A stretch of 64,000 nucleotides of DNA, taken from Lentimicrobiaceae bacterium. GTDB lineage: Bacteria; Bacteroidota; Bacteroidia; Bacteroidales; UBA4417. Under the pieces are notes generated by a model. That model was not told where the DNA came from. It did not search any database and worked only from the letters and a program-made list of their open reading frames with translations. The stretch is taken from positions 917-64,916 of the forward strand of contig JBGSUB010000019.1 of the NCBI GenBank assembly GCA_041753535.1, given 5' to 3'. Shown in pieces: positions 27,879 through 45,446 of the stretch; the stretch's first letter is position 1; every line of letters starts with the position of its first letter. The translations under genes were made by a program, and so were the position numbers.

Positions 27879-27886
27879 TATTTTTG
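27879..27886 (+). promoter_or_regulatory. -7 box TATTTTTG for the 27947 gene
   Basis: It matches TAnnTTTG, sits immediately after the terminator and lies 61 nt upstream of the ATG. Confidence 0.45.
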
Positions 27887-27946
27887 CTTTCCATAAATAT
27901 CTGTTGTTTAATACATAACCCCAAAAATCAAACAAAATTTCGTCAC

Positions 27947-30079: not shown

Positions 30080-30236
30080 ATCTATCTTTATATTTTTAAA
30101 AAAGGCTGCCTGTTTACCGGTGGCCTTTTTTATTTCCGTTCTTACAACCTCTTCACAAAACTTTCTTCGGAGTATATCACTTTTTTGCTGAAATTTGACA
30201 TCCGAAAAGACACTGCCACCAAAAGAGTAATCACCT

Positions 30237-33200
30237 ATGAAAACCATTACACTGATAAGCCTTCTGCTTTCACTTACGTTATCCGGCCTGGCTGGTAAAG
30301 TTGAGCAGGTATACCATTTTGAGAAACCTTCTGTTCGCCATGCTGATGAATACCAGATGTTTGATCTCAACAATACCATGCTTACTGCATTGCCGGGTCA
30401 GCCTGCATTGCCATACCGCCAGGTTAATCTTATGCTTCCACCTGGCGAATCAGCCACAGGCATCGAAATCATTTTTTCCGATGAAGTAGTGCTACCCGGA
30501 ATATTTAACCTATATCCTCAACAGGAAGTTCGCCCTGTGTCAGCCGGCAGCTCCGGAACTTTTATAAAAGACAATGCTGTTTATAGCCGGAATGTTTCGC
30601 TGCCAGCTGATCCGAAGGGGCAGTTGATAACCGCTTTCCTGAATGGCCGCTCATTTGCGTTGACAACCTTTACACCTGTTCGTTACAATCCCGTTACCGG
30701 AAAACTGTCCTATTACTCTGCTGCCCGCGTTGTTGTTCACACAGCTCCTTCAGAAAAGGCATCAATGGCTTTGAAAAATCTTAACCTCCATAACCCTGCT
30801 GCTGTAAAACTGGCAGATAATAAATCAATGGAGCAGGATTATAAAAGCCGGAAACAGTCCACTACCACCAATTATGACCTGTTGATCATCACTCCATCTG
30901 CTTTTGCAAATTCCTTCAACAATTTAAAGGAGAATTACATGAAAGAAGGAATCACATCACTTGTGGTTACCCGCGACAGCATAACCACAACCATGACAGG
31001 GATGGATACACCCGAAAAGATCCGTAATTTCATTATCCAGGAATACCAGACACACGGAATACAATATGTATTGCTGGGCGGTGATGATGAACTTATTCCT
31101 CACCGGGGATTTTACTGTTATGTTGTTTCCGGATCAGGATATACGGATCAGAATATACCTGCCGATCTTTATTACTCAGCACTCGATGGCAACTGGAATT
31201 CCGATGGCGATGAATTTTGGGCTGAACCCGGCGAAGACGACCTTTTGCCGGAAGTGGCAGTGGCACGCATGCCTTTCAGCAATGCCAGTGAGCTTAACAA
31301 AATGCTGAATAAAAGTTATAAATACCAGTTTACGCCCATTTTAGGCGAGTTCAGAAACATACTTATGGCAGGTGAAAACCTCTGGTCGAATCCTGACACC
31401 TGGGGCAGCGATTACCTGGAGTTGCTTAAAGGTGAACGGTCGGATAACGGGTACACAACCACCGGCATTCCGACAGATTTCAGCTTCGACCATATGTATG
31501 ACGAAACTACTTACTGGACCGGTCAGGATCTGATGAATCACCTGAACCAGGGACGCCCCATGCTGAACCATGTTGGTCATGCCAACGAAACTTATGTAAT
31601 GAAACTGAGTAACGGAGATATTACCAATTCAAACTTTTCCGGACTGAATGGGATAAACCATAATTTTACTATTGTTTACACGCATGGCTGCTTATGCGGT
31701 GCATTTGATTACAACGATTGTATTGCCGAAAAAATGGTCACCATCGATAATTTTGCAGCTGCTTTTATCGGGAATTCCCGTTTTGGCTGGTTCAACGAAG
31801 GGCAAACCGAAGGTCCCTCGGCTCACCTGCACCGCGAATACATGGATGCATTGTACACAGATAGCCTCAACCGCATAGGCTGGGCTCATATGGAATCGAA
31901 AATTGCTACCGCTTCGTGGGTAACGGCTCCGGGACAATGGGAACCTGGTGCATTACGTTGGTGTTTCTACGATTGTAATGTGTTGGGCGATCCGGCTTTG
32001 GCAGTTTTTACTGATAATCCTTTAACAATAAATACGTCTTACCCAAGCAGTATTCTTATCGGAACAAGCTCGATGAGCGTTGCCGTTACATCCGGTGGAC
32101 TACCGGTTAACGGGTTAAATTGTGTAGCCATGAAAAGCGGGGTTGTCATCGGGAAATCTACTACCGATGCAGCCGGCCAGGCCGTTATCACCTTTGATGT
32201 CTTGGTTCAGGATCCGGGCGATGCCGAACTCATTGTTTCCGGCTACAACTGCGTTCCAACCATCTACAATTTTGCTTTTTTAGCAGTCGCAGGACCATAT
32301 GTGGTGTACGCACAAAGTACGGTAAATGACCCGTCAGGAAACCTGAACAACCAGCCTGATTATGGTGAAACAATCCTGTTAACAAACGGCATGAGAAATA
32401 TTGGCGGCAGCGATGCCATAAATGTTTTGGTAACGCTCACAAGCACCGATCCTTATGTAGCAATCACTGACAGTACCGAACTTTATGCATTGGTAGCTGC
32501 CGGCGATACTGTTACTATCGTTAATGCCTTTACATTCGCTATCTCAAATACTATTCCCGACGGGCATATAATAAATTTTGTATTAAAAGCAAGTGCCGGA
32601 AGTGATTGGATATCAGAGTTTTCACTCAGTTGTTTAGCGCCTGCACTTGCTGCAGGAAGCCTTATAATTGACGATGTTTCCGGCGGCAACGGCAATGGCA
32701 GGCTCGATCCCGGCGAAACTGCCACATTTATTATTCCTTCATTTAACAACGGAAGCAGTGCCTGCAGCAACACAACAGGGACCATTGCAACAACCAATCC
32801 CTGGATCAGTATTACGTCACCGGTATTTCAAATAGGAGCTCTTGAAGCAGGAACATCAGCGAATGCCGGGTTCGAAGTGCAGGTGAGCAGCGATGCACCT
32901 GTGGCAACGATTGTTGAACTGGACTATGTGCTTTCTTCGGGTGGTTACTTTGCAAATGCTACTTATTTTCCAGCAATCCGCCTGATAGTCGAAGACTTTG
33001 AATCCGCTGATTTTGAAGAATTTCCATGGCCTGTTTTCGGGCAGAATTTCTGGAAAATCACAAACACTTCACCGCTCGAAGGATTGTATTGCAGCAGATC
33101 GGCTCCGATTGCTCACAGCCAGTCATCCACTATGGATATCAGGCTTAATGTGCTTGCCGATGACAGCATCTCTTTTTATTCCAAAGTTTCGTGCGAAGAG

Positions 33201-33686
33201 ATTTTTGATAAACTGAAATTTTACATCGACATTCAACCTATGAACGAATGGTCGGGGACAATACCATGGCAACGTTACAGCTACCCGGTTACCGCAGGAG
33301 TGCACACCTTTAAGTGGGTATATTCAAAGGATCAATATACATCCTCGGGAGAAGATTGCGCATATGTTGATTTCATAGTATTCCCGGCTTTTGTTGATTA
33401 CACGGGTAAGAATGAACTCACTCCAGACCATGCAGCGCTGGAAATATCGCCTAATCCTGCTTCGGAAAAAATAAATATAGATGCATCAATCGGGCCGGAT
33501 ACCAGGCTGATATTCCGCATTTACAACAGCGAGGGCAAAACAGTATTGACATCGAAAGAAATATATACCGATGGGAATGGCAGCGCAAAACATAGTTTCG
33601 ATGTTTCCGGTTTAAAACCAGGATATTATACCTGCGAAATTATATCGGAAAACATTAACATTTCGAGGCCTTTTATTGTTAATTAA
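30237..33686 (+). CDS. Peptidase C25 (gingipain family) with Ig/CARDB-like modules, jelly-roll module and T9SS CTD
   Basis: It has a signal peptide and a propeptide-like N-terminus. The core reads YDLLIITPSAF...YVLLGGDDELIPHRGF. The candidate catalytic His is in NHVGHANE and the Cys in YTHGCLCGAFD. The CTD is ISPNPASEKI...RPFIVN. Confidence 0.85.
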   Translation: MKTITLISLLLSLTLSGLAGKVEQVYHFEKPSVRHADEYQMFDLNNTMLTALPGQPALPYRQVNLMLPPGESATGIEIIFSDEVVLPGIFNLYPQQEVRPVSAGSSGTFIKDNAVYSRNVSLPADPKGQLITAFLNGRSFALTTFTPVRYNPVTGKLSYYSAARVVVHTAPSEKASMALKNLNLHNPAAVKLADNKSMEQDYKSRKQSTTTNYDLLIITPSAFANSFNNLKENYMKEGITSLVVTRDSITTTMTGMDTPEKIRNFIIQEYQTHGIQYVLLGGDDELIPHRGFYCYVVSGSGYTDQNIPADLYYSALDGNWNSDGDEFWAEPGEDDLLPEVAVARMPFSNASELNKMLNKSYKYQFTPILGEFRNILMAGENLWSNPDTWGSDYLELLKGERSDNGYTTTGIPTDFSFDHMYDETTYWTGQDLMNHLNQGRPMLNHVGHANETYVMKLSNGDITNSNFSGLNGINHNFTIVYTHGCLCGAFDYNDCIAEKMVTIDNFAAAFIGNSRFGWFNEGQTEGPSAHLHREYMDALYTDSLNRIGWAHMESKIATASWVTAPGQWEPGALRWCFYDCNVLGDPALAVFTDNPLTINTSYPSSILIGTSSMSVAVTSGGLPVNGLNCVAMKSGVVIGKSTTDAAGQAVITFDVLVQDPGDAELIVSGYNCVPTIYNFAFLAVAGPYVVYAQSTVNDPSGNLNNQPDYGETILLTNGMRNIGGSDAINVLVTLTSTDPYVAITDSTELYALVAAGDTVTIVNAFTFAISNTIPDGHIINFVLKASAGSDWISEFSLSCLAPALAAGSLIIDDVSGGNGNGRLDPGETATFIIPSFNNGSSACSNTTGTIATTNPWISITSPVFQIGALEAGTSANAGFEVQVSSDAPVATIVELDYVLSSGGYFANATYFPAIRLIVEDFESADFEEFPWPVFGQNFWKITNTSPLEGLYCSRSAPIAHSQSSTMDIRLNVLADDSISFYSKVSCEEIFDKLKFYIDIQPMNEWSGTIPWQRYSYPVTAGVHTFKWVYSKDQYTSSGEDCAYVDFIVFPAFVDYTGKNELTPDHAALEISPNPASEKINIDASIGPDTRLIFRIYNSEGKTVLTSKEIYTDGNGSAKHSFDVSGLKPGYYTCEIISENINISRPFIVN

Positions 33687-33806
33687 ATGAATTGAATCAG
33701 GAGTCCGGTCATGTTTTTTTGAATTAAGATCGATGCTTCTTCAAATACTTATGCAATGATTCACTCAAATTTGATTTTATATCCAAAATAAATACCCACA
33801 TCCGGC

Positions 33807-36800
33807 ATGAATACAATTGGGATAGTTCAGCAACAAATCAGTAAATGGAGAAACTTCCCGGTTCTTTTCTGTTTTTTTGTACTCCTTTCTATATCAGTTA
33901 TCCACCCTGACATAAAGGCGCAGGGGTATATGCCTGCCAGTGATGTTCCGCCAAAATACATTCCCGATACAAGAATTGATAATATGGGCTATTGGCGCCG
34001 CATGGCTGAGTTGGGACTTGTTCCCGTACAGGCTGTGAAACGGGCACCTCCCGCAATTAATCGAAGTTCGAAGCTTTCGGCTCCGGGCATAGCCACGTAT
34101 GATTCTCCTGATATACGGGTAACAGAAACCAATTCGTTGCAGTCGGAGAACTCCATTTTTGTTCATCCCGAAAATGGCCTGATCCTGCTTAACTCAAACA
34201 ATTCGCACCCGGCTCCTTATGTAGGAACGCAATTCGGGGCCGACGCATTGCAGAGTGATGATGGTGCTGCAACATGGGAAGGAACTATACAGGGAGCAGG
34301 AGGTTATAATTTCGGCGATCCAACCACGGCTATCAGCCGTTCAGGAAGAATGTTTGTAGGGTATATTTTTTCGGGAGGCGGCCAGGGCGTTTCTTATTCC
34401 GACGATTTCGGCCAAACCTGGAAGAAAAGGGCTGTGGCACCGGCTCCGGGCGGAATAGGCAGTATCCTCGATAAAAACCATTTATGGATTGATAACAGCC
34501 TCACCAGTCCTTATACCGGATATTTGTACGATGGATGGACAGTGATTGGCGGAGGTAGTGCGGGTTCGGGGCACTTGCAGGTTTCACGCTCTATGGATGG
34601 AGGACTTGCCTGGCAAAATCCGGTTACTATCAGCGCTAATGTAGCAGCCGGAAGCCATAACCAGGGTATAAATATACATACCGGCCCCGAAGGTGAGGTT
34701 TATGCAGTTTGGGCCATTTATGATAACTGGCCGGCAAACGAGAAAGCACTTGGATTCGCCCGTTCTTACACTGGAGGGCATACCTGGCAGCCGGCTTCAC
34801 GGATAATAGATAATATCAAAGGAATCCGCCTTCAGGGAGTAAATAAACTCATGAGAGTGAATTCTTTTCCCTCTATGACGATTGATATCAGCAACGGCCC
34901 CGACAGAGGCAGTATATATGTGGTTTGGGCGAATTGTGGTGAGCCAGGGATCAATGAGGGAACGGGAATTGATATTTACTTGATGAAATCGAAAGACAAG
35001 GGTGATACCTGGAGTGCACCGATAAGGATAAATCAGGATGCTACAGGTCTGGGGAAACAGCACTATTTCCCCTGGATTACCTGCGATCCTGAGAACGGTA
35101 ACCTTGCCATAGTATTTTACGACGACAGGAATGTGCCTGACGATATGTGCGAGACCTGGGTTGCAGTTTCAAAAAACGGAGGATTGTCGTGGCAGGATTT
35201 CAGGGTGAGCGATGTAGCATTTACACCACAACCCCTCACCGGAATGTCTGATAACTATTTTGGCGATTACTTAGGCAATGCGTCAAAGGGTGGTATGGTA
35301 TATCCCTGCTGGACGGATAACCGCACTGGCGAAGCAATGGGATATGTGTCGCCATTCAGGATCGGACCACCGCCGGGGCAACCTTATATTGACTATTATA
35401 CACACCTGGTAAATGATACATTATCAGGAAACGCTAATGCCAAAGCTGAAGCAGGCGAAACATTTGCACTTTCGCTCACCATGAGGAATATAGGTGATCA
35501 GCCCGATAGTTCGGTAAATGTAACACTCAGCTGCGAATCATCTTATGCACAGATTTTGAATAACAGTCAGTATTTTGGTGATTTTGGAACCGGGGAGTTG
35601 AAAAGCATTCCTCAGTCATTTCTGATCAGATTGTCCGATTCAATACCTGATGATTACGAACTTGTTTTCACGCTGAGTTCAACAGATCAGTCGGACAGCA
35701 CTTTCCTCAGCAGTATGGTTATACGTTCACATGCACCGCATTTGAGTATAGGTCCGTTATTCGTGATTGATAACGGGGGAAATGGCAATAACCAGCCCGA
35801 TCCCGGTGAATCAGTAATTCTGGGCAGCGTACTTACCAATACCGGGGATTATCATATTGATTCTGCCAAAAGCCGGCTTTCCACTACACAAGCATTCTGC
35901 CACATCATCAATCCAGAGGTTATTTCTACACAATTATCACCGGGCCAAAGCGATACTGTTTTCTGGCAGGTTAATATCGATGAATCGGTTGCCGCAGGCA
36001 CAGCAGCCGGATTTACTGATAGCCTGAGTTATTCGGGACAACTTACTAAAAGATTGTTTCTGAAAAAGATAGGAGTGCTTACCGAAGACTGGGAATCCGG
36101 CGACCTTTCGAAAATGGCCTGGAAAACCGGTGGCGCCAAATCCTGGAATATCAACAATTTCAAGGTGTATGAAGGCACCTATAGTTCGAGGTCAGGATAT
36201 ATCAACAGTCTTGATACTTCTTCTTTATACATTACCTTGAACCTTGCAGCCGACGACAGTATATCATTTTACCGAAAAGTATCGTCAGAGCTCAGTTATG
36301 ATTTTCTGAATTTTTATATCGATAAGATGAAAGTCGGGCAGTGGTCGGGAGAGAAAGATTGGGCCCGGGTTTCATTTCCGGTGCCTGCGGGCATTCACAC
36401 CGTAAAGTGGGATTATGTTAAGGACCTTGGCCTGAGTGTAGGCTTTGATGCTGCCTGGATCGATTTTATTGAGTTTCCGGTTCAGCAGCGTACCACAGCT
36501 GATGCCGGTGCCGATGCCCGTATTTGCGGAGGCAACACTTTTCAGCCAGATGCTACCGCCACCAATTACATCACATTGAAGTGGAGCACAACAGGCACAG
36601 GATTTTTTAACGATCCAGGCATAATTAACCCGAGATATTATCCCAGCCCGGCTGATCTTGAAGCCGGAACAGTACAACTTATCATTACTCTTACAGGCTT
36701 TTCGTATGGCGAAATTGTTAGTGATACATTGGTATTGACTTTTGCACCTAAACCCACTCTTGATGCCGGACCCGATTCATTTACCTGTACAGGTGAAGTT

Positions 36801-37775
36801 TTCGTCACATCAGCAAATGCAACAAATTATATTTCAGCACACTGGTCAACTTCAGGTGACGGTAGTTTCGATAATGCCGATACTTTACTAACAACTTATA
36901 CACCCGGAGCTACTGATATTCTTAACAAAAAAGTAAGACTAATCGCACATATTGAAACAGAAGCTGTATGCAGTCAATTGCTTGATACATTAATTCTGAA
37001 TATTTATCCAGGATTTACAGCAGAGTTAAGTGGTGATACTACTATCTGCAAAGGCGATACAACTTTTCTCAAACTCCAGTTGAACGGGCAGGGGCCATGG
37101 AGAGTATATGTTTCAGATGGGAGTAGTATCAACCTGGTGAAACCGCAGTTGTATATTCCTGTTGCACCGGTTATTACCACTTTATACAGTATTGATTCTA
37201 TTACCAATGCTGCCGGATGTACTTTCCGTTCGATGCTGAAAGCCCAGGTTAACGTGATGCAACCTCCTGTTATTGAGATGCTTGGTCCGGTGGAAAGCTG
37301 CCAGGGTAAGCAGGTTATTCTGGAAGCAAAAGCTGATAGCGTGTCGGTTTATAGTTGGACTCCTGTTGAAGCATCCACCCCGGTTATCAATCCTGTTGTT
37401 TCAGGCAATTTCGGTGAAATAAAAAAATACTCCGTTTATGTTACAGGTATAAACGGTTGTACCACTTCCGATTCCCTTGCGATAAAGATTGTGACAGATT
37501 GTACCGAAAAGAAGGCAGGAGATATGGATGTAAGGTTTTACCCCAACCCGACGAACGGTGATTTTACACTGGTGCTTTCTTCAACCGTAGCTGAATCAGC
37601 GAATGTAAGCATCAGTTCAATGGATAATAAACTTGTTTATCTGCTCGAGAACATACAGGTACTCGGAGTAAATTCCATAAGGATAAACCTGGAATCGGTT
37701 GCCCAGGGAACATACCTGATTCAGATCCAGTGTGGTAGCGGTGAATTGAAGGATAAGATTGTAATAAAGAAATAA
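33807..37775 (+). CDS. BNR/Asp-box (sialidase-fold) giant surface protein with Ig/CARDB-like, jelly-roll and duplicated DAGxD..C modules and T9SS CTD
   Basis: Five Asp-boxes are present: SDDFGQTW, SMDGGLAW, YTGGHTW, SKDKGDTW, SKNGGLSW. The CTD is FYPNPTNGDF...KIVIKK. Confidence 0.8.
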   Translation: MNTIGIVQQQISKWRNFPVLFCFFVLLSISVIHPDIKAQGYMPASDVPPKYIPDTRIDNMGYWRRMAELGLVPVQAVKRAPPAINRSSKLSAPGIATYDSPDIRVTETNSLQSENSIFVHPENGLILLNSNNSHPAPYVGTQFGADALQSDDGAATWEGTIQGAGGYNFGDPTTAISRSGRMFVGYIFSGGGQGVSYSDDFGQTWKKRAVAPAPGGIGSILDKNHLWIDNSLTSPYTGYLYDGWTVIGGGSAGSGHLQVSRSMDGGLAWQNPVTISANVAAGSHNQGINIHTGPEGEVYAVWAIYDNWPANEKALGFARSYTGGHTWQPASRIIDNIKGIRLQGVNKLMRVNSFPSMTIDISNGPDRGSIYVVWANCGEPGINEGTGIDIYLMKSKDKGDTWSAPIRINQDATGLGKQHYFPWITCDPENGNLAIVFYDDRNVPDDMCETWVAVSKNGGLSWQDFRVSDVAFTPQPLTGMSDNYFGDYLGNASKGGMVYPCWTDNRTGEAMGYVSPFRIGPPPGQPYIDYYTHLVNDTLSGNANAKAEAGETFALSLTMRNIGDQPDSSVNVTLSCESSYAQILNNSQYFGDFGTGELKSIPQSFLIRLSDSIPDDYELVFTLSSTDQSDSTFLSSMVIRSHAPHLSIGPLFVIDNGGNGNNQPDPGESVILGSVLTNTGDYHIDSAKSRLSTTQAFCHIINPEVISTQLSPGQSDTVFWQVNIDESVAAGTAAGFTDSLSYSGQLTKRLFLKKIGVLTEDWESGDLSKMAWKTGGAKSWNINNFKVYEGTYSSRSGYINSLDTSSLYITLNLAADDSISFYRKVSSELSYDFLNFYIDKMKVGQWSGEKDWARVSFPVPAGIHTVKWDYVKDLGLSVGFDAAWIDFIEFPVQQRTTADAGADARICGGNTFQPDATATNYITLKWSTTGTGFFNDPGIINPRYYPSPADLEAGTVQLIITLTGFSYGEIVSDTLVLTFAPKPTLDAGPDSFTCTGEVFVTSANATNYISAHWSTSGDGSFDNADTLLTTYTPGATDILNKKVRLIAHIETEAVCSQLLDTLILNIYPGFTAELSGDTTICKGDTTFLKLQLNGQGPWRVYVSDGSSINLVKPQLYIPVAPVITTLYSIDSITNAAGCTFRSMLKAQVNVMQPPVIEMLGPVESCQGKQVILEAKADSVSVYSWTPVEASTPVINPVVSGNFGEIKKYSVYVTGINGCTTSDSLAIKIVTDCTEKKAGDMDVRFYPNPTNGDFTLVLSSTVAESANVSISSMDNKLVYLLENIQVLGVNSIRINLESVAQGTYLIQIQCGSGELKDKIVIKK

Positions 37776-37863: not shown

Positions 37864-38964
37864 CTAATCTTTTATCAGGTCCATGCCGCATGTATGGCAT
37901 TGGGTTTTTACAACCGATCTCACTACGGGATGCATGGGACAATAATAATCGCCGGTTTCTGCTTTCTTGTTTTTAAAAGCCATCAGTTTATAAGAAAGAC
38001 CTAAAGTGAACTGGTATTGTGTACCAACCTGGGTTTTAGTTAAATATTGATATACAGGTATATCGGCCACTCCGTAAAAGCTGAAGTTGTCTATTGAGTA
38101 GCTAACCTGTGGGCTTACAAATACTTTTTTATATCCTGTAGCCTCAGGGTCATAGCTTGGATAAGCATACAGCAGAATATTTTCATTCAGTTGCATTTTA
38201 TCGACCATTTCATAACGAAGCTGAATAGTAGTACCCAGGCTTTTAAAGAAAGTTTTTCCTGCGAAGACGCCTATACTGGCAAAATCACCAAGTTTTTCAC
38301 CCAGGGGATTCCAGCCTTTCTTAACATAAATCATGTTTGCAAAAACCCTGAATTTTTTCATTGGGTACCCGCGATATAAAAAAGTATAAAAAATAAAATC
38401 CTGGGCACCTGACGACATTTGAACAGATTGAGGGTTTGTAACATAATAGTTTTCTCCCGAAAAGGGCTCTGTTCTCATGGTTGAATCATTGTAACTTCCA
38501 ATTGGTATTTTGAATCCCAAACCTACGGTAATTTCGTTTGTAACATTGCCTGTACAATAATTCAGAACCCGGTATCGAGGAAAAAGGATCAGGTCACCGA
38601 ACCCTTTTGAGTTAAAAGTCCTTTCCGGATCCGCATCGAGTCCTACTTCTTCTTTATAAAAATAATTCCCTCCTTCGACTGACATCGTTAAATCAGGCGT
38701 AAGCCCATATGCAACCCTGAAATATTGGTAGAGGCTTCGGTATTGGTCAAAATACTTATCCTCATACTCCCGTGAACTTCCCGTATAAAAGTTTTCACTC
38801 TGAATAAACTGCAGGTTGGTATTCAATTCAATCTGATTCGGAAGAAGCACACCCTGGGAAGTTCCTCCGGCTATAGGACTTCCGGAGCCGCCTGAACAAC
38901 ATTGGGCAACCAGCTGATTTGTATAGAATATCGCAAATATTCCGACCAGTAATGATAATTTCAT
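37864..38964 (-). CDS. Outer-membrane beta-barrel ('transporter'/MetA-like) protein fused to a C-terminal heavy-metal-binding domain (HMBD)
   Basis: The signal peptide ends VAQ and is followed directly by CCSGGSGSP. About 300 aa of amphipathic strands follow. The C-terminus is GDYYCPMHPVVRSVVKTQCHTCGMDLIKD, which fits the YxCPMHP..CxxCGMxL pattern. Confidence 0.7.
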   Translation of the reverse strand: MKLSLLVGIFAIFYTNQLVAQCCSGGSGSPIAGGTSQGVLLPNQIELNTNLQFIQSENFYTGSSREYEDKYFDQYRSLYQYFRVAYGLTPDLTMSVEGGNYFYKEEVGLDADPERTFNSKGFGDLILFPRYRVLNYCTGNVTNEITVGLGFKIPIGSYNDSTMRTEPFSGENYYVTNPQSVQMSSGAQDFIFYTFLYRGYPMKKFRVFANMIYVKKGWNPLGEKLGDFASIGVFAGKTFFKSLGTTIQLRYEMVDKMQLNENILLYAYPSYDPEATGYKKVFVSPQVSYSIDNFSFYGVADIPVYQYLTKTQVGTQYQFTLGLSYKLMAFKNKKAETGDYYCPMHPVVRSVVKTQCHTCGMDLIKD

Positions 38965-39006
38965 GGCATGAAAATTTTAAATGTTTACTTAATTTGTCTG
39001 CCGGCA

Positions 39007-39780
39007 TCAATGTGATACAACAAATCTGGCTCTCTTCATTCCTGAATCTGCTTTTAAACACGCAAAATAAATGCCGTTTTTCAAACCTATACTGCTCACA
39101 CTAATCGTATTTTCGCCCTGTTTCAGGTGAAAAGAAGCTGGTTGCAAAACCTGGATGCCTGAATTATTATAAATAACAAGTTCGCACGGTTCTGATTTCT
39201 CAGAAGTGAAATTTAATGAAACCTCATTGTTCGCTGGATTTGGGTAAATTTTAATGTCATTTACCTGCACAGGATCGCTAATGCTGACGGAAAAGTCCTC
39301 AAGGGCAGTAGTAATAGCATTCGTGAGAAGATCTACATTAACTGTATTGTTTGTATTGTAATATACCTGATGGGTGTAATTGCCAACTACTACAATTTTG
39401 GGCATACCATTTGAGCCGTAATCGCTCATTTTAATGGCGGAATTGGAGAACTTAGTGGCATTGGTAAGCCCATTTTGAGTACACCAACTGTTTAATGATG
39501 AACAATTCGTATTTGCATAATCATCACAAATGTACATTTTAACCCTGTCAGGGTATGATAGGTTGAAACTTTGGACCACATTATAAGTAGTTTTAGTGGG
39601 ACCAATGCATGATGCACAGGGCATAACCCAGCAAAGTATTACTACCTTACCTGCATCAAGTTCATTAAAAAGATTATGGCTCACTCCAGTACAATCATCA
39701 CATATGAAATTTGTGGCAGTTTGACTGAATGCTCCAAAGGATGCAAGAAATATGATCAGGATAATTAGTTTGATTTTCAT
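39007..39780 (-). CDS. Cys-rich thioredoxin-fold-like protein with T9SS CTD
   Basis: It has a signal peptide. VVILCWVMPCASCIG is redoxin-like with a PCxxC motif. The ~150-aa N-terminal domain has 8 Cys. The CTD is IYPNPANNEVSL...RFVVSH. Confidence 0.65.
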   Translation of the reverse strand: MKIKLIILIIFLASFGAFSQTATNFICDDCTGVSHNLFNELDAGKVVILCWVMPCASCIGPTKTTYNVVQSFNLSYPDRVKMYICDDYANTNCSSLNSWCTQNGLTNATKFSNSAIKMSDYGSNGMPKIVVVGNYTHQVYYNTNNTVNVDLLTNAITTALEDFSVSISDPVQVNDIKIYPNPANNEVSLNFTSEKSEPCELVIYNNSGIQVLQPASFHLKQGENTISVSSIGLKNGIYFACLKADSGMKRARFVVSH

Positions 39781-39929
39781 TTGCTCGTCTTTTAATTTAA
39801 CATTTAGAGAAAGGAAATTTTTATTTCAACGTTAAAGCTTCCCGGGGAAACATACAACATTCTTTATATGAATTTGTTTGTCTTTTTCTAAAGCCAAACA
39901 GACCTTTAACGTTGTTGCAGGAGGATTCG

Positions 39930-42272
39930 CTAATTAATAACATACCTGAAACCTGCATACACAGTTGCTCCAACCAAAGGTCCCCAGACCATAGAAGTAT
40001 CAAAATGAGTATGATACGGAGCAAATGCCTCGGTAACAGGATCTTTCTGAGTAAAATTGGTTAGATTTTCACCTCCGAGGTAAACTTCGAACACCTTAAA
40101 TTTACGCGTAACCTGGGCTAACAATTGTACATATGCCGGGGAATATTCGCCTCGTTGCAGGGATACAGGCATTTTCTGTGTATCAGGAATCCTCACTTTG
40201 CCGTTAAATTGAGTAGTGAAGTCGAATTTCCATTTGTCGAATTTGGTGGCATAATTCAGCGAGACAATTCCTTTATATGCATTCACCATTGGTTTCTGTC
40301 GAAGCTCATCGTTGATGGTGGTTTTTACATCACTTACCCTGAAAGCTGCTAAAACGGAAAGCCTTTTTAACGGTTCAAATGTAATCTGCGCCATATAGCT
40401 GTTGGCATACGATTGGCCATCGAGATTGTAAAAATATACATCCGAAGGAATGCTGTCGAGGTCAGTAATTACCTGGCTGATAAAGTTAGTACGGTAGGCT
40501 TCAATATCTATTTGTGCTTCGCGGCCGAAAAGTTTAAAATCGTGTGTTACATTCAATCCAAAATTCCATGCTTCTTCCTGTTTCAGATTCTCTTCAATAT
40601 GAATCAGCCGCTGGCTGGCCATAATGGAGAAATTTTCTGCAAAAAGATTTGCCGTACGATAGCCTTTCCCTGCTGAAGCCCTGATTGAAGTAGTTGGTAA
40701 AACTTTATACCTTAAATGAAACCTTGGTGTAAAGAATAAACCATATTTGTTGTGATGATCGGCACGGATGCCTCCGATCAATGTCAGTTTTTCGATGGGA
40801 GTCCAGTTGTATTCGAGGTATGCACCGGGTACAATTTCTTTACGGTCCATTATATAAGTTGTATCAGAGAAACTTACAACCATGAACAAGGTATCGGAAG
40901 GTGCAGTAACGTCAACCATTCCGATCTCCTGGTATAAGTATTTAAAGTCGCGGCGGAAATAATCTTCGTCATAATTATCGTAAATAAAACTTAAACCTGT
41001 CGTAATCCGGTGGTTTTCGTTTCCGCCAAGGGCATCCTGGTATATCAGGTTTCCGTAAACGCTTTTTTGTGTTCCCTCGTATTTGTTTTCACCAAAAAAG
41101 CCTTCCTGCGAATGGTATATTCCTGAAACAATAACAGCAATGCTTCGGTAATCATTAAGTATAAAACCGTTTTTCCAGAAACTTTCAAGGCGCTTTGTTT
41201 TCAGGTTAAACCCATAGGTTTCGGTAAGATCGCTGATTTTGACAATATCCGGGTTATACTGGTCGGGATTGAAATCCATATAACCACCAGTGCGGGTTTC
41301 GTCCATATATTTCACCAGGAAACGGGAGTCATATTTACCTGGAATATCATAATCCCACCGATTTATAAAATTGTAGGTGGTAACTTTGGGGATATCCATA
41401 AATTCGTCGCCGTTTTTATCAAATGGCGACTGAAACGTACTGGCATGCCCAAGCACCATTGTGCTTAACCGATCGTTGATTTTGGTACCTGTATTGAAAT
41501 TGGCTTCGAGCCTGCCGTGCTGGTTTGCAAACATATTAAGGAAGAGTTTTTCGCTTTCGGCCGGCTTTTTATATTCAACATTTATCATTCCGGTCGTTGA
41601 TTCATAACCATTCATAACGGAAGATGCACCTTTCGATACGCTTATGGCTTCCATCCACGGACCGGGAATATACCCAAGACCGAATGTAGCACCCAAACCA
41701 CGCATAAGCGGAACATTTTCGGAAATAATCTGGCTGTAAACACCTGATAATCCGAGCATCTGAATCTGTTTCGCTCCTGAGATGGCATCGGCATACATTA
41801 CATCAACTGACGAACTGGTTTCGAAACTTTCGGAGAGGTTGCAGCAGGCAGCACGTTTCAATTCCTTACTGGTAATTACCTGCACTTTCCGGGGATCCAC
41901 ATGCGAAATAAATGTGCCGCCTATATCTCCGCTTATCTCCACCTCCTTAAGTTCATTGGTGCTTTCGCGCATGGTAATATCTATGTGATTGATCCCTTGT
42001 ACATCGATTGTATCAGTGTGATAACCCAGAGAACTCACAACAATTTTCTGCGCTACTATGCCCTTGCGCGACAATCGGAACTTGCCGTAAGCATCAGAAC
42101 TTGTTCCTGTTGTGGTTCCTGCCCAGTGAATGTTTACACCCGGCAGGCCCTCCATATGGCCATGCTCATCCATAGCACTTATTTCGCCGCTGATAGCCTG
42201 GGCATTGGCTCTTCCTACCCACATTGCAAATAGCAGGCTGAAAATGAGTTGAAAAACTATTTTGAATTTCAT
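39930..42272 (-). CDS. TonB-dependent receptor with N-terminal carboxypeptidase-regulatory-like domain
   Basis: It has a signal peptide and a CarbopepD_reg-like segment (GLPGVNIHWAGTTTGTSSDAYGKFRLS). Plug motifs are present (SVSKGASSVMNGYESTTGMINV), followed by a long barrel. Confidence 0.88.
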   Translation of the reverse strand: MKFKIVFQLIFSLLFAMWVGRANAQAISGEISAMDEHGHMEGLPGVNIHWAGTTTGTSSDAYGKFRLSRKGIVAQKIVVSSLGYHTDTIDVQGINHIDITMRESTNELKEVEISGDIGGTFISHVDPRKVQVITSKELKRAACCNLSESFETSSSVDVMYADAISGAKQIQMLGLSGVYSQIISENVPLMRGLGATFGLGYIPGPWMEAISVSKGASSVMNGYESTTGMINVEYKKPAESEKLFLNMFANQHGRLEANFNTGTKINDRLSTMVLGHASTFQSPFDKNGDEFMDIPKVTTYNFINRWDYDIPGKYDSRFLVKYMDETRTGGYMDFNPDQYNPDIVKISDLTETYGFNLKTKRLESFWKNGFILNDYRSIAVIVSGIYHSQEGFFGENKYEGTQKSVYGNLIYQDALGGNENHRITTGLSFIYDNYDEDYFRRDFKYLYQEIGMVDVTAPSDTLFMVVSFSDTTYIMDRKEIVPGAYLEYNWTPIEKLTLIGGIRADHHNKYGLFFTPRFHLRYKVLPTTSIRASAGKGYRTANLFAENFSIMASQRLIHIEENLKQEEAWNFGLNVTHDFKLFGREAQIDIEAYRTNFISQVITDLDSIPSDVYFYNLDGQSYANSYMAQITFEPLKRLSVLAAFRVSDVKTTINDELRQKPMVNAYKGIVSLNYATKFDKWKFDFTTQFNGKVRIPDTQKMPVSLQRGEYSPAYVQLLAQVTRKFKVFEVYLGGENLTNFTQKDPVTEAFAPYHTHFDTSMVWGPLVGATVYAGFRYVIN

Positions 42273-42392
42273 ATGATTTATTTGATCAGAAGTTTACAAA
42301 CTGTTTAATGAATTGAATCAACTTCTTTTGCATCTGCAAAGCCATATAGCCATGAGAAGTAAAAAAGCTGGTAAATAAGGGGGAATTGACCC

Positions 42393-42881
42393 TTAACAGT
42401 TGTAACTGATCAGTGGAATTCGCTGTTGCGAGAGAAACAGCACGAGCTTGCGGCCCGCAAGTGGAGAGGGAAATGCACCTGAGCCGGGTAATTCAGAATC
42501 TTCCTTTTCAGGAGTGCATGATGAAAAAACATTGCTAAGTATCGAAATTACTGCCGGCTGCAATAAGACCAGGAAAGACAGATCTTTAACCGGCGATTCA
42601 AGTGAGAGTTTACTGAAATAAGAAACATTTGAACAGCAGCTGTTTTTTGTCAGTACAGGTTTACTGTTGGCCGGTGACGAATTTTTATCAGTGAGATCGT
42701 TAGCACAACCACAGGAAGCTGATTGCTGTAAACCAAGCTCGGGGTAAAAAGCAATACCCGATAGTTTGTCATGACAATAATGAGCCTGGTATGATAACCC
42801 TGTTGCACCAGCTATAACAATCGCTGCAAGCACAACGAGTAAGGCATTTTTAAGATACAAACGGATTATTTTCAGTTTCAT
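42393..42881 (-). CDS. Small membrane-anchored Cys/His-rich protein (HYC...CC motifs; possibly the HYC_CC_PP family)
   Basis: The start is refined to MKLKIIRLYL, 18 nt downstream of a -7 box. It has one N-terminal TM helix and the motifs AHYCHDK, SCGCAND and NSCCSN. Confidence 0.6.
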   Translation of the reverse strand: MKLKIIRLYLKNALLVVLAAIVIAGATGLSYQAHYCHDKLSGIAFYPELGLQQSASCGCANDLTDKNSSPANSKPVLTKNSCCSNVSYFSKLSLESPVKDLSFLVLLQPAVISILSNVFSSCTPEKEDSELPGSGAFPSPLAGRKLVLFLSQQRIPLISYNC

Positions 42882-42898
42882 ATTCGCGTAATTGCATG

Positions 42899-42906
42899 CA
42901 AAAGTA
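42899..42906 (-). promoter_or_regulatory. -7 box TACTTTTG driving the HYC/TonB-receptor cluster
   Basis: The reverse complement of caaaagta matches TAnnTTTG, 18 nt upstream of the ATG at 42881. This argues against the longer ORF start at 42917. Confidence 0.5.
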
Positions 42907-42981: not shown

Positions 42982-43908
42982 TTATTTCAAACCACTGACT
43001 ACATTTAAACTCTGGGGCAGAATATTGAAAACAAATGGTGTATGACCGAGTGATTCGCCATCCGCTTCCATATACATGTGAGGTTCGGAGTGAATGATGA
43101 TTTTTGATGAGCGAAATGTACTTACTTCGGGCAAACGTGTGAAACTGCCGTCGAAAAGCTTGATGATATTCCTGATAATTTTAATTTTCCCGATGGGTTT
43201 TATAAGGGTCATGTCAAATAGTCCGTCATCAGGCAGAGCTTCCGGGGTTTGTTTCATTCCGCCTCCATTATACTGACCAATACCGACGCTCATGCTGAAA
43301 ATATCCGATACCACTTTTTCGTTATCGAGGAGGATAGTAACCTTGGTAAAGGTATAACTGAATAAACTTGAAAATATATTAACAACATAAGATAGGGGGT
43401 TGCTTTTACCCAAATCCTTTTGTTTGTTTGTCTTTTGGGCTACAAGAGCATCAAATCCCATTCCTGCCATATTGATAAAATAGCGTGTAATTTCTTTACC
43501 ATCGACGGAAATATATTTTATGGTTCCGGTATCCTGTACAAATATTTTACGCTTTATAATGAGTTTGATAGCCTGTTTGTAATCGTTGGGAATATTGTAC
43601 ATCCGGCACCAGTCGTTACCGGTACCAACCGGAATCATGGCAAGTGTTATTTCGCTGGTCGGCACATGGGCCTGGGTAAATATACCGTTAACTACCTCAT
43701 TAAGGGTGCCATCGCCACCAACAACAATAATATTCCTGTAACCATTCTCAATATATTTCCTGGCTAATAAAACTGCATGATTACGATGCTCGGTAAACAC
43801 GTTAACAAATTCAATTCCAGCGGCAGTAAGCTGTGCAGCAATTTCGAGCCAATCCTTTTCCCCCTTGCGTTTTCCGGCATTGGGATTAACAATTACGAAC
43901 CAATCCAT
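42982..43908 (-). CDS. YegS/BmrU-type diacylglycerol/lipid kinase
   Basis: The motifs are IVNPNAGKRKG, VVGGDGTLNEVVNG and PVGTGNDW. Confidence 0.85.
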   Translation of the reverse strand: MDWFVIVNPNAGKRKGEKDWLEIAAQLTAAGIEFVNVFTEHRNHAVLLARKYIENGYRNIIVVGGDGTLNEVVNGIFTQAHVPTSEITLAMIPVGTGNDWCRMYNIPNDYKQAIKLIIKRKIFVQDTGTIKYISVDGKEITRYFINMAGMGFDALVAQKTNKQKDLGKSNPLSYVVNIFSSLFSYTFTKVTILLDNEKVVSDIFSMSVGIGQYNGGGMKQTPEALPDDGLFDMTLIKPIGKIKIIRNIIKLFDGSFTRLPEVSTFRSSKIIIHSEPHMYMEADGESLGHTPFVFNILPQSLNVVSGLK

Positions 43909-44111
43909 AGTGCATTATTAGAATGAGAAACTTGCTTTTGACGCTCGAAAGATAGGAATAATCTTTTGAAAGCTGTAAAAATTGCTAAAAAACCAGTGGA
44001 CTGATAAGGTTTCAGGCTTTCAGTTTCCAGCTTGTGAAGAAGGAATCGGGAATCTCGAATCCCTGAAGGCCTCCCTCTCTCCGGATCTCCCAATCTCCGA
44101 CTCTCTCACTC

Positions 44112-45446
44112 TCAGATAACCCTTCCTTCCCATTTTCCCCTCTTCAAATATATCCACGAAAGCAGGCCCAGAACAACGGCATACATATATTCACAAAGCC
44201 ACACCACTTCAATCGGCTGACGGAGTTTAACGGCCAGAAGCCAGGCCAGAACAAGATACAGGCTGAGAGTGGAAACCTCAATAGCAAGGCCGGTGCGGGT
44301 ATTTCCGGTCCCCAGAACACCGTTGAATAAAACAATGGTTGCCGAAAAAAGGAATACAGCTCCCAGGATAATATAATAGGAAGCAACCGATTCTTCCTGT
44401 AAGCCTGTATCGCTGGTATATATCGAAATCATAAAATGCGGAACAAATGCAGCCAGTATAGCTACCACCAACATGATTCCCATACTGAAAACCAAAACTT
44501 TTTTAACAATAGGAATAACCTGCTTTGAAAAGCCTTCACCTATGGCATTGCTCACAATGCTGCTTGTGGCAGAACTCATTGCCCAGGCCGGAATCATAAG
44601 CAACATATAGATACTTCGTATAATATTTGAAACAGCCAATGAGGTTTCACCCATTTTTTCGATAAGCAGGAAAAACCCAAACCAAACAGCATGTGATAAT
44701 ACAAACTGAATCATGATGTAAAGTGATAAATCAAGAGTGTTTTTAATAATTTTAAAATCGGGTTTTACGAATGCAAAAAGTTTGAATTTCTCCAGATGAG
44801 CCCTTCGCGCTGTGATAGCAAAAAAGAAAAGAAGTGCGCAGGCTTCGGAAATTGCGGATGCAAGACCAGCGCCGGCTATGCCCATTTCAGGAAGTCCCAG
44901 CTTGCCGAAAATCAGCCCGTAATCAAGTATTACGTTGATAACAGCCATTATTCCTGCACTGATACTGATGTATTTTGTAAACGCAATACCTGTATAAAAC
45001 GAACGGAAGAGTAAGGCTGAAGATGCGAAAAATAAGCCAAAAATCCGGTATTTCAAGTAAATGGTACTTGCAGCAAAAATATTTGCCGAAGCAATAAAAG
45101 GTTTTAACAACTGCTCTCCGAAAAGGACAATCAACAAAGTAATAATAAGTGTGGAAATACCCAGGAAGTAAAAACTGTTATCGAAAATAGATCCAATGGC
45201 CGGGAAATCCTTTTCCCCGTTTCTGCGGGCGATCAATATTTGCACCCCGGTTGTAAAGCCATATGCAACCATAAAAAGTGTAACATAAAACAACCCTCCA
45301 ATAGCCGATGCGCCGAGTTCAACAGCCCCCACATGCCCCAGGAAAGCGGTATCAGTTACATTAACAATATTCTGGGCTACCAGGCTGATCATAATGGGCC
45401 AGGAGATAATCCAGATTTTCCGGATGGAAGGAGTGTTGGAGGGCAT
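44112..45446 (-). CDS. MATE family efflux transporter
   Basis: It has 12 TM helices and an N-terminus (IWIISWPIMISLVAQNIVNVTDTAFLGHVG) typical of MATE transporters. Confidence 0.85.
   Translation of the reverse strand: MPSNTPSIRKIWIISWPIMISLVAQNIVNVTDTAFLGHVGAVELGASAIGGLFYVTLFMVAYGFTTGVQILIARRNGEKDFPAIGSIFDNSFYFLGISTLIITLLIVLFGEQLLKPFIASANIFAASTIYLKYRIFGLFFASSALLFRSFYTGIAFTKYISISAGIMAVINVILDYGLIFGKLGLPEMGIAGAGLASAISEACALLFFFAITARRAHLEKFKLFAFVKPDFKIIKNTLDLSLYIMIQFVLSHAVWFGFFLLIEKMGETSLAVSNIIRSIYMLLMIPAWAMSSATSSIVSNAIGEGFSKQVIPIVKKVLVFSMGIMLVVAILAAFVPHFMISIYTSDTGLQEESVASYYIILGAVFLFSATIVLFNGVLGTGNTRTGLAIEVSTLSLYLVLAWLLAVKLRQPIEVVWLCEYMYAVVLGLLSWIYLKRGKWEGRVI

Follow-up and report, generated by a model that had tools for sequence, protein, structure and literature searches.

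A putative leader-controlled TonB-dependent receptor and a candidate outer-membrane copper module in an envelope locus of a Lentimicrobiaceae bacterium

What do four adjacent genes for cysteine- and histidine-rich envelope proteins accomplish, and do they form a single system at all? The question is raised by a locus within 64,000 nucleotides (nt) of DNA from a Lentimicrobiaceae bacterium (GenBank assembly GCA_041753535.1, contig JBGSUB010000019.1, positions 917 to 64,916 of the forward strand; this whole stretch is called the window, and coordinates refer to it unless another locus is named). The four open reading frames (ORFs), here g1 to g4, are co-directional, all on the minus strand, and are separated by spacers of 120 nt (g1-g2), 149 nt (g2-g3) and 42 nt (g3-g4). 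The gene g1 (42393..42881, minus strand) encodes a protein of the HYC_CC_PP/DUF8199 family, which has 162 amino acids (aa) when read from the second ATG and 174 aa when read from an upstream ATG, and which is proposed below as a metal-sensing leader ORF. The other three genes encode a TonB-dependent receptor of 780 aa (g2; 39930..42272, minus strand), a protein of 257 aa sorted by the type IX secretion system (T9SS) (g3; 39007..39780, minus strand) and an outer-membrane barrel of 366 aa (g4; 37864..38964, minus strand). A preliminary description made from the letters of the DNA had reported this arrangement together with the HYCH, SCGC and SCCS motifs of g1, the PCASC motif and eight cysteines of g3, and the QCCSGG sequence after the signal peptide and the C-terminal YYCPMHP...CHTCGMDL of g4, and the ORF translations bear out all of these items. 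It had also taken the four genes for one route of a chalcophilic metal that included no regulator. The analysis reported here leads to another arrangement, in which the locus would be a copper-linked envelope operon that joins a leader-controlled receptor to a portable copper module; judging from sequence and predicted structure, we give this explanation as a whole about an even chance of being correct.

Whether the four genes belong together was examined by their co-occurrence in related loci. A profile search of 1.84 billion representatives yielded 606 DUF8199 clusters, and distant g1 loci were collected by scanning a metagenome collection with a degenerate DNA pattern for the subfamily that is 24-33% identical to g1, which gave 26 loci. 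The genes g1 and g2 are adjacent in 17/17 genome loci that have enough sequence (19 loci in total), and a g1 relative is likewise adjacent to a g2-type receptor in every distant metagenome locus having downstream DNA. Two further contigs show the same g1-receptor pairing, which makes about 40 readable loci in all, every one of them paired, and g1 is always the first gene, immediately 5' of the receptor. The genes g3 and g4 follow the receptor in 8 close loci. In 6 other close loci the place of g3 is taken by another T9SS protein and a lipoprotein of 120 aa, and the barrel that comes next, of 24-27% identity, lacks the HMBD domain that ends g4; two loci (L014 and L019) contain neither g3-g4 nor the replacement module. 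Adjacent g3 (41-50% identity) and g4 (48-62% identity) genes are found without g1 and g2 in Bacteroidia, Saprospiraceae, Sphingobacteriales and Ignavibacteria-labelled contigs, each of the two has about 1000 homologs in the protein collection, and the second pair mostly occurs apart from the first. The four genes are, therefore, two independently conserved pairs, g1+g2 and g3+g4, rather than a single fixed system, and the earlier view of them as one unit has to be given up.

The alternative module found in the sister loci lies at positions 13049-15304 of L008 and occurs also in L004, L011, L013, L015, L017 and L060. It consists of a T9SS protein of about 300 aa with a weak PCMD match, the 120-aa lipoprotein (ICHGG...C) and a barrel of 320-333 aa that starts AQCCSTGSP. 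In two unrelated lineages a 350-360-aa protein with a weak CarboxypepD_reg match is encoded a few genes 5' of g3-g4 (L023, 4191-5270; L020, 2841-3896).

What, then, is the role of g1 in front of the receptor gene? We consider it reasonably probable that g1 is a regulatory leader ORF, a reading suggested by the anatomy of its product and of the mRNA behind it. The protein matches the NCBIfam model NF047658 (HYC_CC_PP) at 35.1 bits (cutoff 28), and 21 of 36 diverse relatives also match this model at E<=0.01. The corresponding Pfam family, PF26622 (DUF8199), is precomputed on most g1 homologs; a Pfam scan of g1 and the 36 relatives returned no match, and the PF26622 model is possibly missing from the Pfam copy scanned. 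Neither HYC_CC_PP nor PF26622/DUF8199 was found named in any of the papers searched. All aligned members have a basic N-terminus and then a hydrophobic segment of about 19 residues, as read from the alignment and not by a dedicated predictor. In g1 this segment (ALLVVLAAIVIAGATGLSY, residues 13-31, 42789..42845, minus strand) would act as an export signal or signal-anchor, and the invariance or near-invariance of G25, G28 and S30 within it speaks against a signal peptide that is simply cleaved off. Next come the candidate metal-ligand motifs H34-x-C36, C57-x-C59 and C82-C83 (residues 34-83, 42633..42782, minus strand). Among family members that are only 20-34% identical, H34, C36, C82 and C83 never vary and C57 and C59 hardly do, and the order across the family is HxC directly after the hydrophobic segment, then CxC or CC..C, and then CC.

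The C-terminal end of g1 carries an arrest-peptide-like motif (PSPLAGRKLVLFLSQQRIP, residues 138-156, 42414..42470, minus strand). The family consensus at this place is PPPLSGKxLVxFLHQ[IL][KR]IP, or PPPxxG[KR]xLVxFLxQx[KR]IP in a looser form, which ends 4-6 residues before the stop codon; P139 and P140 are nearly invariant, and the window protein has PSP at 138-140. Over the 14 codons GRKLVLFLSQQRIP the 19 close loci show 2.6% amino-acid divergence and 0.39 synonymous changes per codon pair, and this low amino-acid divergence despite free synonymous change indicates selection at the peptide level. In the same loci, the amino-acid divergence over the six codons downstream of the final proline is 34%, with fewer synonymous changes. 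The distance between the CC pair and the final proline is 74 residues in the window and 73-75 residues in 175 of 189 family sequences (93%), and it is the same in 75 of 88 distant representatives of 50% clusters (85%). The linker that spans this distance has a pairwise identity of 9% versus 52% over the last 20 residues, and the distance from the histidine to the CC pair is looser (42-54 residues in the family). A hairpin that resembles a terminator and has a T-rich tail occurs within g1 itself at 42441-42459 (minus strand), over the AGRKLV codons of the C-terminal motif; it may be a chance match or an element of the regulatory RNA.

The mRNA between g1 and g2 is also conserved in its architecture. 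The 120-nt spacer (42273..42392, minus strand) is structured and contains two internal hairpins, the first of which holds the g1 stop codon. A long-range helix closes around them, its 5' strand being formed by the g1 tail codons (LISYNC) plus the stop codon (42393..42413, minus strand; paired bases 42396-42412) and its 3' strand by 42283..42304 (minus strand), which ends 10 nt 5' of the g2 AUG (42272). The RNAduplex energy of 42396-42412 with 42283-42304 is -16.3 kcal/mol in the window, a value matched by 0/300 shuffles and by 0/300 other local windows. Over 37 distinct loci the duplex reaches p<=0.05 in 73% against shuffles and in 54% against local windows. The minimum free energy (MFE) of the window spacer is -36.9 kcal/mol (z -3.75, 0/200 shuffles), with the long-range helix present in the MFE fold, and the MFE folds of five loci (z -2.3 to -3.8) all close the spacer with a helix between the g1 tail and the pre-AUG segment around internal hairpins. 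The complementary pair is CUGAUCAGUUACAACUG with CAGUUUGUAAACUUCUGAUCA in one clade and AGUAUUUACAGU with ACUGUAAAUA in another, and further clade-specific pairs are GUUUCCUGA with UCAGGAAAC and UGCUUCAUUGUCAUA with UAUGACAAUCAAGCA; clades thus pair equivalent segments through different sequences, which is covariation. The spacer measures 104-121 nt in the 19 close loci and mostly 62-131 nt in the distant ones, and g1 and g2 never overlap. The C>G bias expected of a Rho utilization (rut) site is weak in the spacer (mean C 0.196, mean G 0.164).

Taken together, the fixed-length linker, the conserved C-terminal peptide motif and the helix suggest that the interpretation of g1 as an anchor protein is probably wrong. 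The same applies to the statement that the cluster lacks a regulator, because g1, which is predicted to be exported or anchored in the inner membrane, has the anatomy of the leader ORFs of the CruR/CutF type that are compared below.

The assignment of g2 as a TonB-dependent receptor is supported by Pfam, which finds a CarbopepD_reg_2 domain in the N-terminal extension (50.5 bits), the plug PF07715 (34.7 bits) and the barrel PF00593, TonB_dep_Rec_b-barrel (78.7 bits). The g2 proteins are 65-94% identical in the close loci, and those beside distant g1 relatives are 47-54% identical. Within the plug the receptor contains C143-C144 (AACCNLSESFE; 41841..41846, minus strand), a CC pair present in 16/16 aligned receptors. 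It is the only conserved cysteine position of g2, since no other Cys column reaches 80% in these 16 sequences. The model of OprC/NosA, TIGR01778, is not among the 11 NCBIfam matches of g2 at E<=0.1, nor is any curated receptor subfamily, and the sole match of g2 to PDB chain sequences is CirA (E 2.6e-7 over about 60 residues).

The gene g4 had been described as a barrel fused to an HMBD, and both parts of this claim are supported by structure or by ligands, the HMM score for the second part falling under its cutoff. The AF2 model (mean predicted local distance difference test, pLDDT, 77.8) places a barrel at residues ~44-328 with a strand pattern that agrees with a 12-stranded COG4313-type barrel; the best Foldseek match is the COG4313 channel Pput2725 (4rl8_C; TM 0.74 normalised to the target, E 6.6e-9), followed by FapF. 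The PF13557 HMM does not match the window g4, and only a few homologs are annotated with it. The predicted mature N-terminus Q21-C22-C23 (38896..38904, minus strand), which immediately follows the predicted cleavage site of the signal peptide, is invariant in 48 g4 homologs, and the barrel variant of the sister loci, at 24-27% identity, retains the QCC start (AQCCSTGSP); the segment that carries it in the g4 model has low pLDDT. The predicted mature N-termini of g2, g3 and g4 all start with Gln (ANA-QA, AFS-QT and LVA-QCC). In Bacteroidota an N-terminal Gln is habitually turned into pyroglutamate, so that mature g4 would start pGlu-Cys-Cys. At the other end of the barrel, the HMBD (DYYCPMHPVVRSVVKTQCHTCGMDL, residues 339-365, 37870..37950, minus strand) scores 21.7 bits against PF19335, under the Pfam gathering cutoff of 23.6, and PF19335.6 is precomputed on most close g4 homologs. 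Residues 339-363 align to the N-terminal domain of LpCopA (8OVL) with six key positions identical, C342, M344, H345, C356, C359 and M361 corresponding to C42, M44, H45, C56, C59 and M61 of LpCopA. Nuclear magnetic resonance of the LpCopA domain mapped Ag+ to M44/C59/M61, and its authors infer the same binding for Cu+. The HMBD ligands are all conserved.

The redoxin-like character that had been attributed to g3 is likewise seen in the fold and not in the HMM searches, in which a T9SS domain is the only match. The AF2 model, built with 53 homologs, has a pLDDT of 86.5, and residues 22-164 are predicted to adopt a thioredoxin fold of the TlpA/ResA/DsbE type with the CxxC at helix 1, an N-terminal hairpin and a central insertion. 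Foldseek aligns this region with ResA at TM 0.78-0.80 normalised to the target (1su9_B, TM 0.80, E 8e-8); DipZ, ResA and other thiol-disulfide oxidoreductases are the top matches, and FetE and BsSco are also present. No Redoxin, AhpC-TSA or Thioredoxin match was obtained in Pfam or NCBIfam at E<=0.1, and matches to PDB chain sequences, both with the single sequence and with a profile, are limited to T9SS C-terminal sorting domains. A type A sorting domain occupies residues 178-255 (PF18962 Por_Secre_tail, 43.4 bits; TIGR04183, 43.1 bits). The 53 homologs show no variation at C30, C55xxC58, C93 and M126-P127, and at least 90% of them keep H35 and H137; in the window g3 all 8 cysteines fall in the first ~100 mature residues.

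Which substrate do these proteins handle? The neighbours of both pairs, together with the conserved ligands, make a link of the locus to a soft metal, copper in the first place, quite probable. One g3-g4 locus has a 122-aa HMA protein directly upstream; a second contains a CusB/CzcB-like adaptor, a 95-aa HMBD protein, a P-type ATPase and a further TonB receptor; a third has DUF3347, a multicopper oxidase and an AraC regulator; and a fourth an AraC regulator, an HMA-bearing P1B ATPase of the CopA type, DUF3347 and a multicopper oxidase. Where g3 occurs without g4, it stands beside an HMA protein in one locus and, in Adhaeribacter, is convergent on a gene for an HMBD-multicopper oxidase fusion. 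On the side of the first pair, an HMA protein with a signal peptide follows the receptor in 5/6 distant g1-g2 loci that have sequence there (L029, 12-371; L031, 4825-5184; L041, 183-527; L042, 5899-6261; L043, 3576-3938). This partner of 120 aa (PF00403, 38.5 bits) is CopZ/MerP-like, with MCxxC and a conserved C-terminal CCKKDAPKH tail, and it has no equivalent in the window. In L042/L045 the genes upstream of g1-g2 include those for an RND pump and a two-component system. Genes for a ccoI-type P1B ATPase and a fused cbb3 oxidase subunit come after g1-g2 in L014 (13084-18025), L015 (15347-20310) and L017 (15604-20483), and in L015 and L017 the alternative T9SS/lipoprotein/barrel module sits between g1-g2 and ccoI-cbb3. 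In the genome survey of one flavobacterium, a TonB-dependent receptor encoded close to cco/nos genes is named as possibly importing copper. Literature searches on HYC_CC_PP, PF26622, PF19335 in this setting, DUF3347 and copper/TonB in Bacteroidota returned no description of this system. The multicopper oxidases, the CopA-type pumps and the Cu(I)-type HMBD favour copper over Zn, Cd and Hg. The suggestion of a chalcophilic-metal system hence stands insofar as the neighbourhoods and HMBD ligands point to a soft metal, most likely copper, and falls insofar as a single four-gene system had been meant.

How a leader and a receptor could be linked to copper may be envisaged as follows. Guided by its N-terminal signal, the nascent g1 chain would enter the Sec translocon and expose the His/Cys motifs to the periplasm while the ribosome moves on to the end of ...LVLFLSQQRIP, 74 residues past the CC pair. 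A ruler of this length should be long enough for the CC pair to have cleared the ribosome tunnel and the translocon when the Pro codon is reached. We infer that the ribosome pauses there, depending on whether the exported cysteine motifs have bound metal, or have formed disulfides and folded. If it is held at the Pro codon, the ribosome would hide the first helix strand and thereby free the initiation region of g2; if it finishes and leaves, the helix could close. The regulated cargo, g2, would be a TonB-energised outer-membrane importer of copper or of a copper complex, its level being set by g1, as would be that of g3-g4 if the two pairs are co-transcribed. The g4 protein could provide a second outer-membrane conduit; we expect its CC-bearing N-terminal segment to lie inside the barrel lumen and its C-terminal HMBD to be periplasmic, as a possible sensor or donor of Cu(I). 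The g3 protein may bind the metal or condition it by redox chemistry at the cell surface. An inner-membrane importer would be unnecessary for delivery to a cuproenzyme of the periplasm or membrane, and likewise for a role in detoxification. Import as the direction of transport is an evenly balanced proposition: the copper-island contexts of g3-g4 favour tolerance, and the receptor and the precedent of CruR favour acquisition. Going further by analogy, HYC_CC_PP/DUF8199 might constitute a new family of arrest leaders of Bacteroidota that gate a TonB-dependent copper importer, and g3-g4 a new outer-membrane module of the copper islands in this phylum, with a channel gated by the HMBD, a tentative proposal that we place somewhat short of probable.

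Several results weigh against this explanation. About one quarter to one half of the loci, depending on the control, are individually non-significant for the duplex, and in the window the helix stops 10 nt before the g2 AUG and leaves the AUG itself uncovered. RNAalifold, run on MAFFT-aligned g1 3' ends with their spacers, did not return the long-range helix and gave just a 6-pair hairpin in the coding region, a failure that we attribute to register shifts between clades that break the alignment; the helix is supported by alignment-free duplex statistics and by single-sequence folds. The [KR]IP motif of g1 is outside the established arrest motifs RAPP, RAGP and PPP, and the DUF2946 HMM, tried on g1 and 36 family members, matches 0/36 at E<=1, for which reason homology of g1 to CruR/CutF was rejected and analogy alone is retained. 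An OprC-type copper receptor was also rejected as an identity for g2, given the lack of a TIGR01778 match and the short match to CirA alone in the PDB. The 149-nt spacer between g2 and g3 may harbour its own promoter, and g3-g4 would then possibly be outside the control of g1. Copper is deduced from the neighbouring genes; systems for Zn, Cd and Hg likewise contain HMA and HMBD domains, and MerTP and MerP stand beside CopZ among the best NCBIfam matches of the HMA partner. Finally, the conserved Gly and Ser residues of the hydrophobic segment of g1 and its strongly conserved Cys motifs also fit a stable membrane-anchored metallochaperone. Such a chaperone, anchored in the inner membrane, would take a thiophilic metal in the periplasm from the plug CC of the receptor and deliver it further, and its conserved C-terminal strand might dock on the periplasmic N-terminal extension of the receptor or on another partner. 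This role, which could coexist with that of a leader, would account for six invariant or nearly invariant Cys/His ligands combined with conserved residues in the membrane segment and for the strict co-occurrence with one receptor lineage that bears its own conserved CC, and the periplasmic HMA protein of the same operons suggests a thiol relay. We nevertheless regard it as rather unlikely, because it leaves unexplained a linker of random-level identity whose length is fixed to within one residue, the pairing with covariation of the last g1 codons to the receptor initiation region, and the invariably first position of g1 before a structured spacer of about 100 nt. CruR, moreover, has the same layout and is short-lived and poorly structured (PMC9426467).

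The doubts about the metal open the way to a substrate other than ionic copper, which could be Zn, Cd or Hg, a metal-thiolate or metallophore, or a disulfide compound that g3 reduces before TonB-dependent import. It is true that the HMBD has a zinc-ribbon-like fold with a site compatible with Zn2+ and Hg2+, that the HMA partner scores the MerTP/MerP and CopZ models alike, and that g3 has a CxxC oxidoreductase fold. TonB-dependent receptors, besides, usually carry chelates and not free ions, and COG4313 channels are linked to hydrophobic molecules. The loci examined contain no merA/merR, znuABC, Zur-type or metallophore biosynthesis genes, though, their recurring enzymes are copper-specific (multicopper oxidases, the CopA-type ATPase and ccoI-cbb3), and the M-C-M residues of the HMBD are the Cu(I)/Ag(I) site of LpCopA, so that another substrate appears unlikely to us. 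A mercury-resistance system in particular was rejected, as merA, merR and merT are absent from every locus. It is more radical to suppose that no metal is involved, that the cysteines form structural disulfides and that the genes serve the uptake of a hydrophobic or glycan-derived nutrient with the help of a COG4313 channel and a sialidase-like BNR enzyme encoded nearby. COG4313 relatives do take up hydrophobic compounds, the BNR/T9SS protein recurs beside g1-g2, the replacement of g3 in the sister loci weakly matches a putative carbohydrate metabolism domain, and the HMBD of the window g4 is slightly under the Pfam threshold. Against this stand the repeated and independent occurrence of both pairs near HMA, HMBD, P1B-ATPase, multicopper oxidase and RND genes in unrelated lineages, the fact that structural disulfides are hardly to be expected from a vicinal CC or an N-terminal QCC, and the full conservation of the HMBD ligands, and we consider a non-metal function improbable. 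The leader-controlled receptor with a copper module remains the explanation that we prefer.

Transcription of the locus may start at a Bacteroidota-type -7 box, TAnnTTTG, which is found as TACTTTTG at 42899..42906 (minus strand), 17 nt 5' of the g1 ATG, where it had been reported before and where it is a candidate for the operon promoter. The window contains 63 copies of TAnnTTTG, compared with 71 expected by chance, and shows no window-wide enrichment; many other copies are also placed directly 5' of ORF starts, which suggests that the position of the box in front of g1, rather than its mere presence, is what counts. No copy was found in the g1-g2, g2-g3 and g3-g4 spacers, nor was a terminator found in the spacer between g2 and g3. 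A sigma-70 promoter scan gave 15 sites against 15.4 expected, hence no excess, and terminator-like sites were uninformative.

The closest public relative of the locus is a Bacteroidales metagenome-assembled genome (MAG; L001) with full synteny and 83-94% protein identity over all four genes, and the remaining close relatives are Bacteroidales or Lentimicrobiaceae MAGs. Upstream of g1, genes for a DAGK/YegS-like lipid kinase and a MATE transporter (42982-45446, minus strand) keep their synteny in many related MAGs at 81-96% identity, which looks like lineage synteny with no functional link to g1. On the other side, the region 27884-37775 (plus strand) is rich in T9SS substrates, with three large T9SS cargo genes in a row that encode a Big_5 protein, a C25 (gingipain-family) peptidase of 1149 aa and a BNR protein. 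The last of these (33807..37775, plus strand), convergent on g4, is identified by Pfam as a sialidase-like BNR_2 propeller protein of 1322 aa with a T9SS C-terminal domain. Eight metagenome loci (L029, L033-L036, L043, L048 and L054) encode homologs of it (47-57% identity over the N-terminal ~550 residues) divergently and directly 5' of a distant g1 gene, and the BNR_2 protein may be a fifth partner of the g1-g2 pair.

Nascent-peptide copper sensing is so far known from two proteobacterial examples of one protein family. If the role proposed for g1 is true, a second, sequence-unrelated family in Bacteroidota would indicate a general principle with more than one evolutionary origin, that of CruR/CutF having been reached again by convergent evolution, and g1 would represent the first arrest-peptide switch described in this phylum. 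DUF8199/HYC_CC_PP would gain a testable function, and the 74-residue linker would be a natural molecular ruler for a relay from outside the membrane to the ribosome. Outer-membrane copper transport in Bacteroidota is essentially uncharacterised, and the receptor lineage with the plug CC and the g3-g4-type pair are candidates for it, with relevance to the supply of cuproenzymes (N2O reductase, cbb3 oxidase) and to copper tolerance in environmental and host-associated Bacteroidota.

The four proteins can be compared with several known systems. The fold of g3 and the position of its CxxC at the start of helix 1 are those of TlpA/ResA/DsbE/Sco proteins (PDB 1SU9, 8T4C and 1XZO), and its M126-P127 may correspond to the cis-Pro loop of TlpA/ResA-type proteins. 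Unlike TlpA/ResA/Sco, g3 would be exported by the T9SS to the cell surface, without a known supply of reductant there, and it has the extra invariant C30 and C93 and the near-invariant H35 and H137. The HMBD of g4 shares with the LpCopA domain the pattern YxCPMHP-x9-C-x2-CGM with identical spacing and with the M/C/M residues kept; the LpCopA domain, which acts as a copper sensor, is cytoplasmic and forms the N-terminus of a pump, whereas that of g4 is at the C-terminus of a barrel and presumably periplasmic. The receptor g2 resembles OprC/NosA (TIGR01778) in being TonB-dependent and in standing behind a Cys leader ORF in copper-linked operons, with cysteine as a candidate ligand. OprC/NosA-type receptors have a CxxxM-HxM site, and g2 differs from them by its CarbopepD_reg_2 extension and its plug CC. 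As to the barrel of g4, Pput2725 (PDB 4RL8) is also 12-stranded and preceded by an N-terminal segment, and in its crystal structure the segment before strand 1 occludes the lumen (PMC4493636). The invariant QCC, the C-terminal HMBD and an occurrence in copper islands rather than in aromatic/lipid catabolic operons set g4 apart from it.

For g1 the nearest likeness is CruR (Bp2923, DUF2946), which heads the copper-repressed operon bp2923-bfrG-bp2921 of Bordetella pertussis, BfrG being a TonB-dependent transporter (PMC9426467). A spacer of 162 nt comes after CruR, a poorly structured protein; its CXXC-RAPP spacing is kept within 1-2 residues, regulation tolerates changes of +/-2 and not of +5, and it acts via Rho-dependent termination (PMC9426467). 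CruR homologs precede OprC-type receptors and come mostly from Proteobacteria, none being reported in Bacteroidota (PMC9426467). Like CruR, g1 is a first gene for a small, presumably exported Cys protein with a C-terminal Pro motif a few residues before the stop codon, the spacing from the cysteines to this motif is conserved and the middle poorly conserved, and a long structured spacer leads to the gene for a TonB-dependent transporter. Unlike CruR, g1 has HxC/CxC/CC and [KR]IP instead of CXXC and RAPP, a spacing of 74 residues instead of 45, and no sequence homology, and it belongs to Bacteroidota. In contrast to Rho-dependent termination, moreover, the g1 locus conserves a helix near the start codon and its rut-like bias is weak.

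Two other leaders also invite comparison. CutF, of the cutFOG operon of Rhodobacter capsulatus, is a member of DUF2946 whose nascent, co-translationally exported chain senses periplasmic copper through its cysteines and which stalls at PPP in dependence on elongation factor P to control a multicopper oxidase (bioRxiv 10.1101/2025.02.05.636593; PMC9973294). The long distance from the CC pair of g1 to its proline fits sensing outside the membrane, as in CutF; unlike CutF, g1 stands in front of a receptor gene, 16-18 residues separate its PPP from the final proline, and the helix starts right after that proline. SecM, which precedes secA in Escherichia coli, is an exported leader with a C-terminal motif of about 17-19 residues ending in Pro, at which a stall opens a stem-loop that masks the initiation site of the next gene; it differs from the proposal for g1 in monitoring secretion and not metal, and it is unrelated to g1 in sequence. 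The logic of gating by a helix that is proposed here for g1-g2 has been shown experimentally for CutF-cutO and SecM-secA, and a Rho-dependent form of it for CruR-bfrG.

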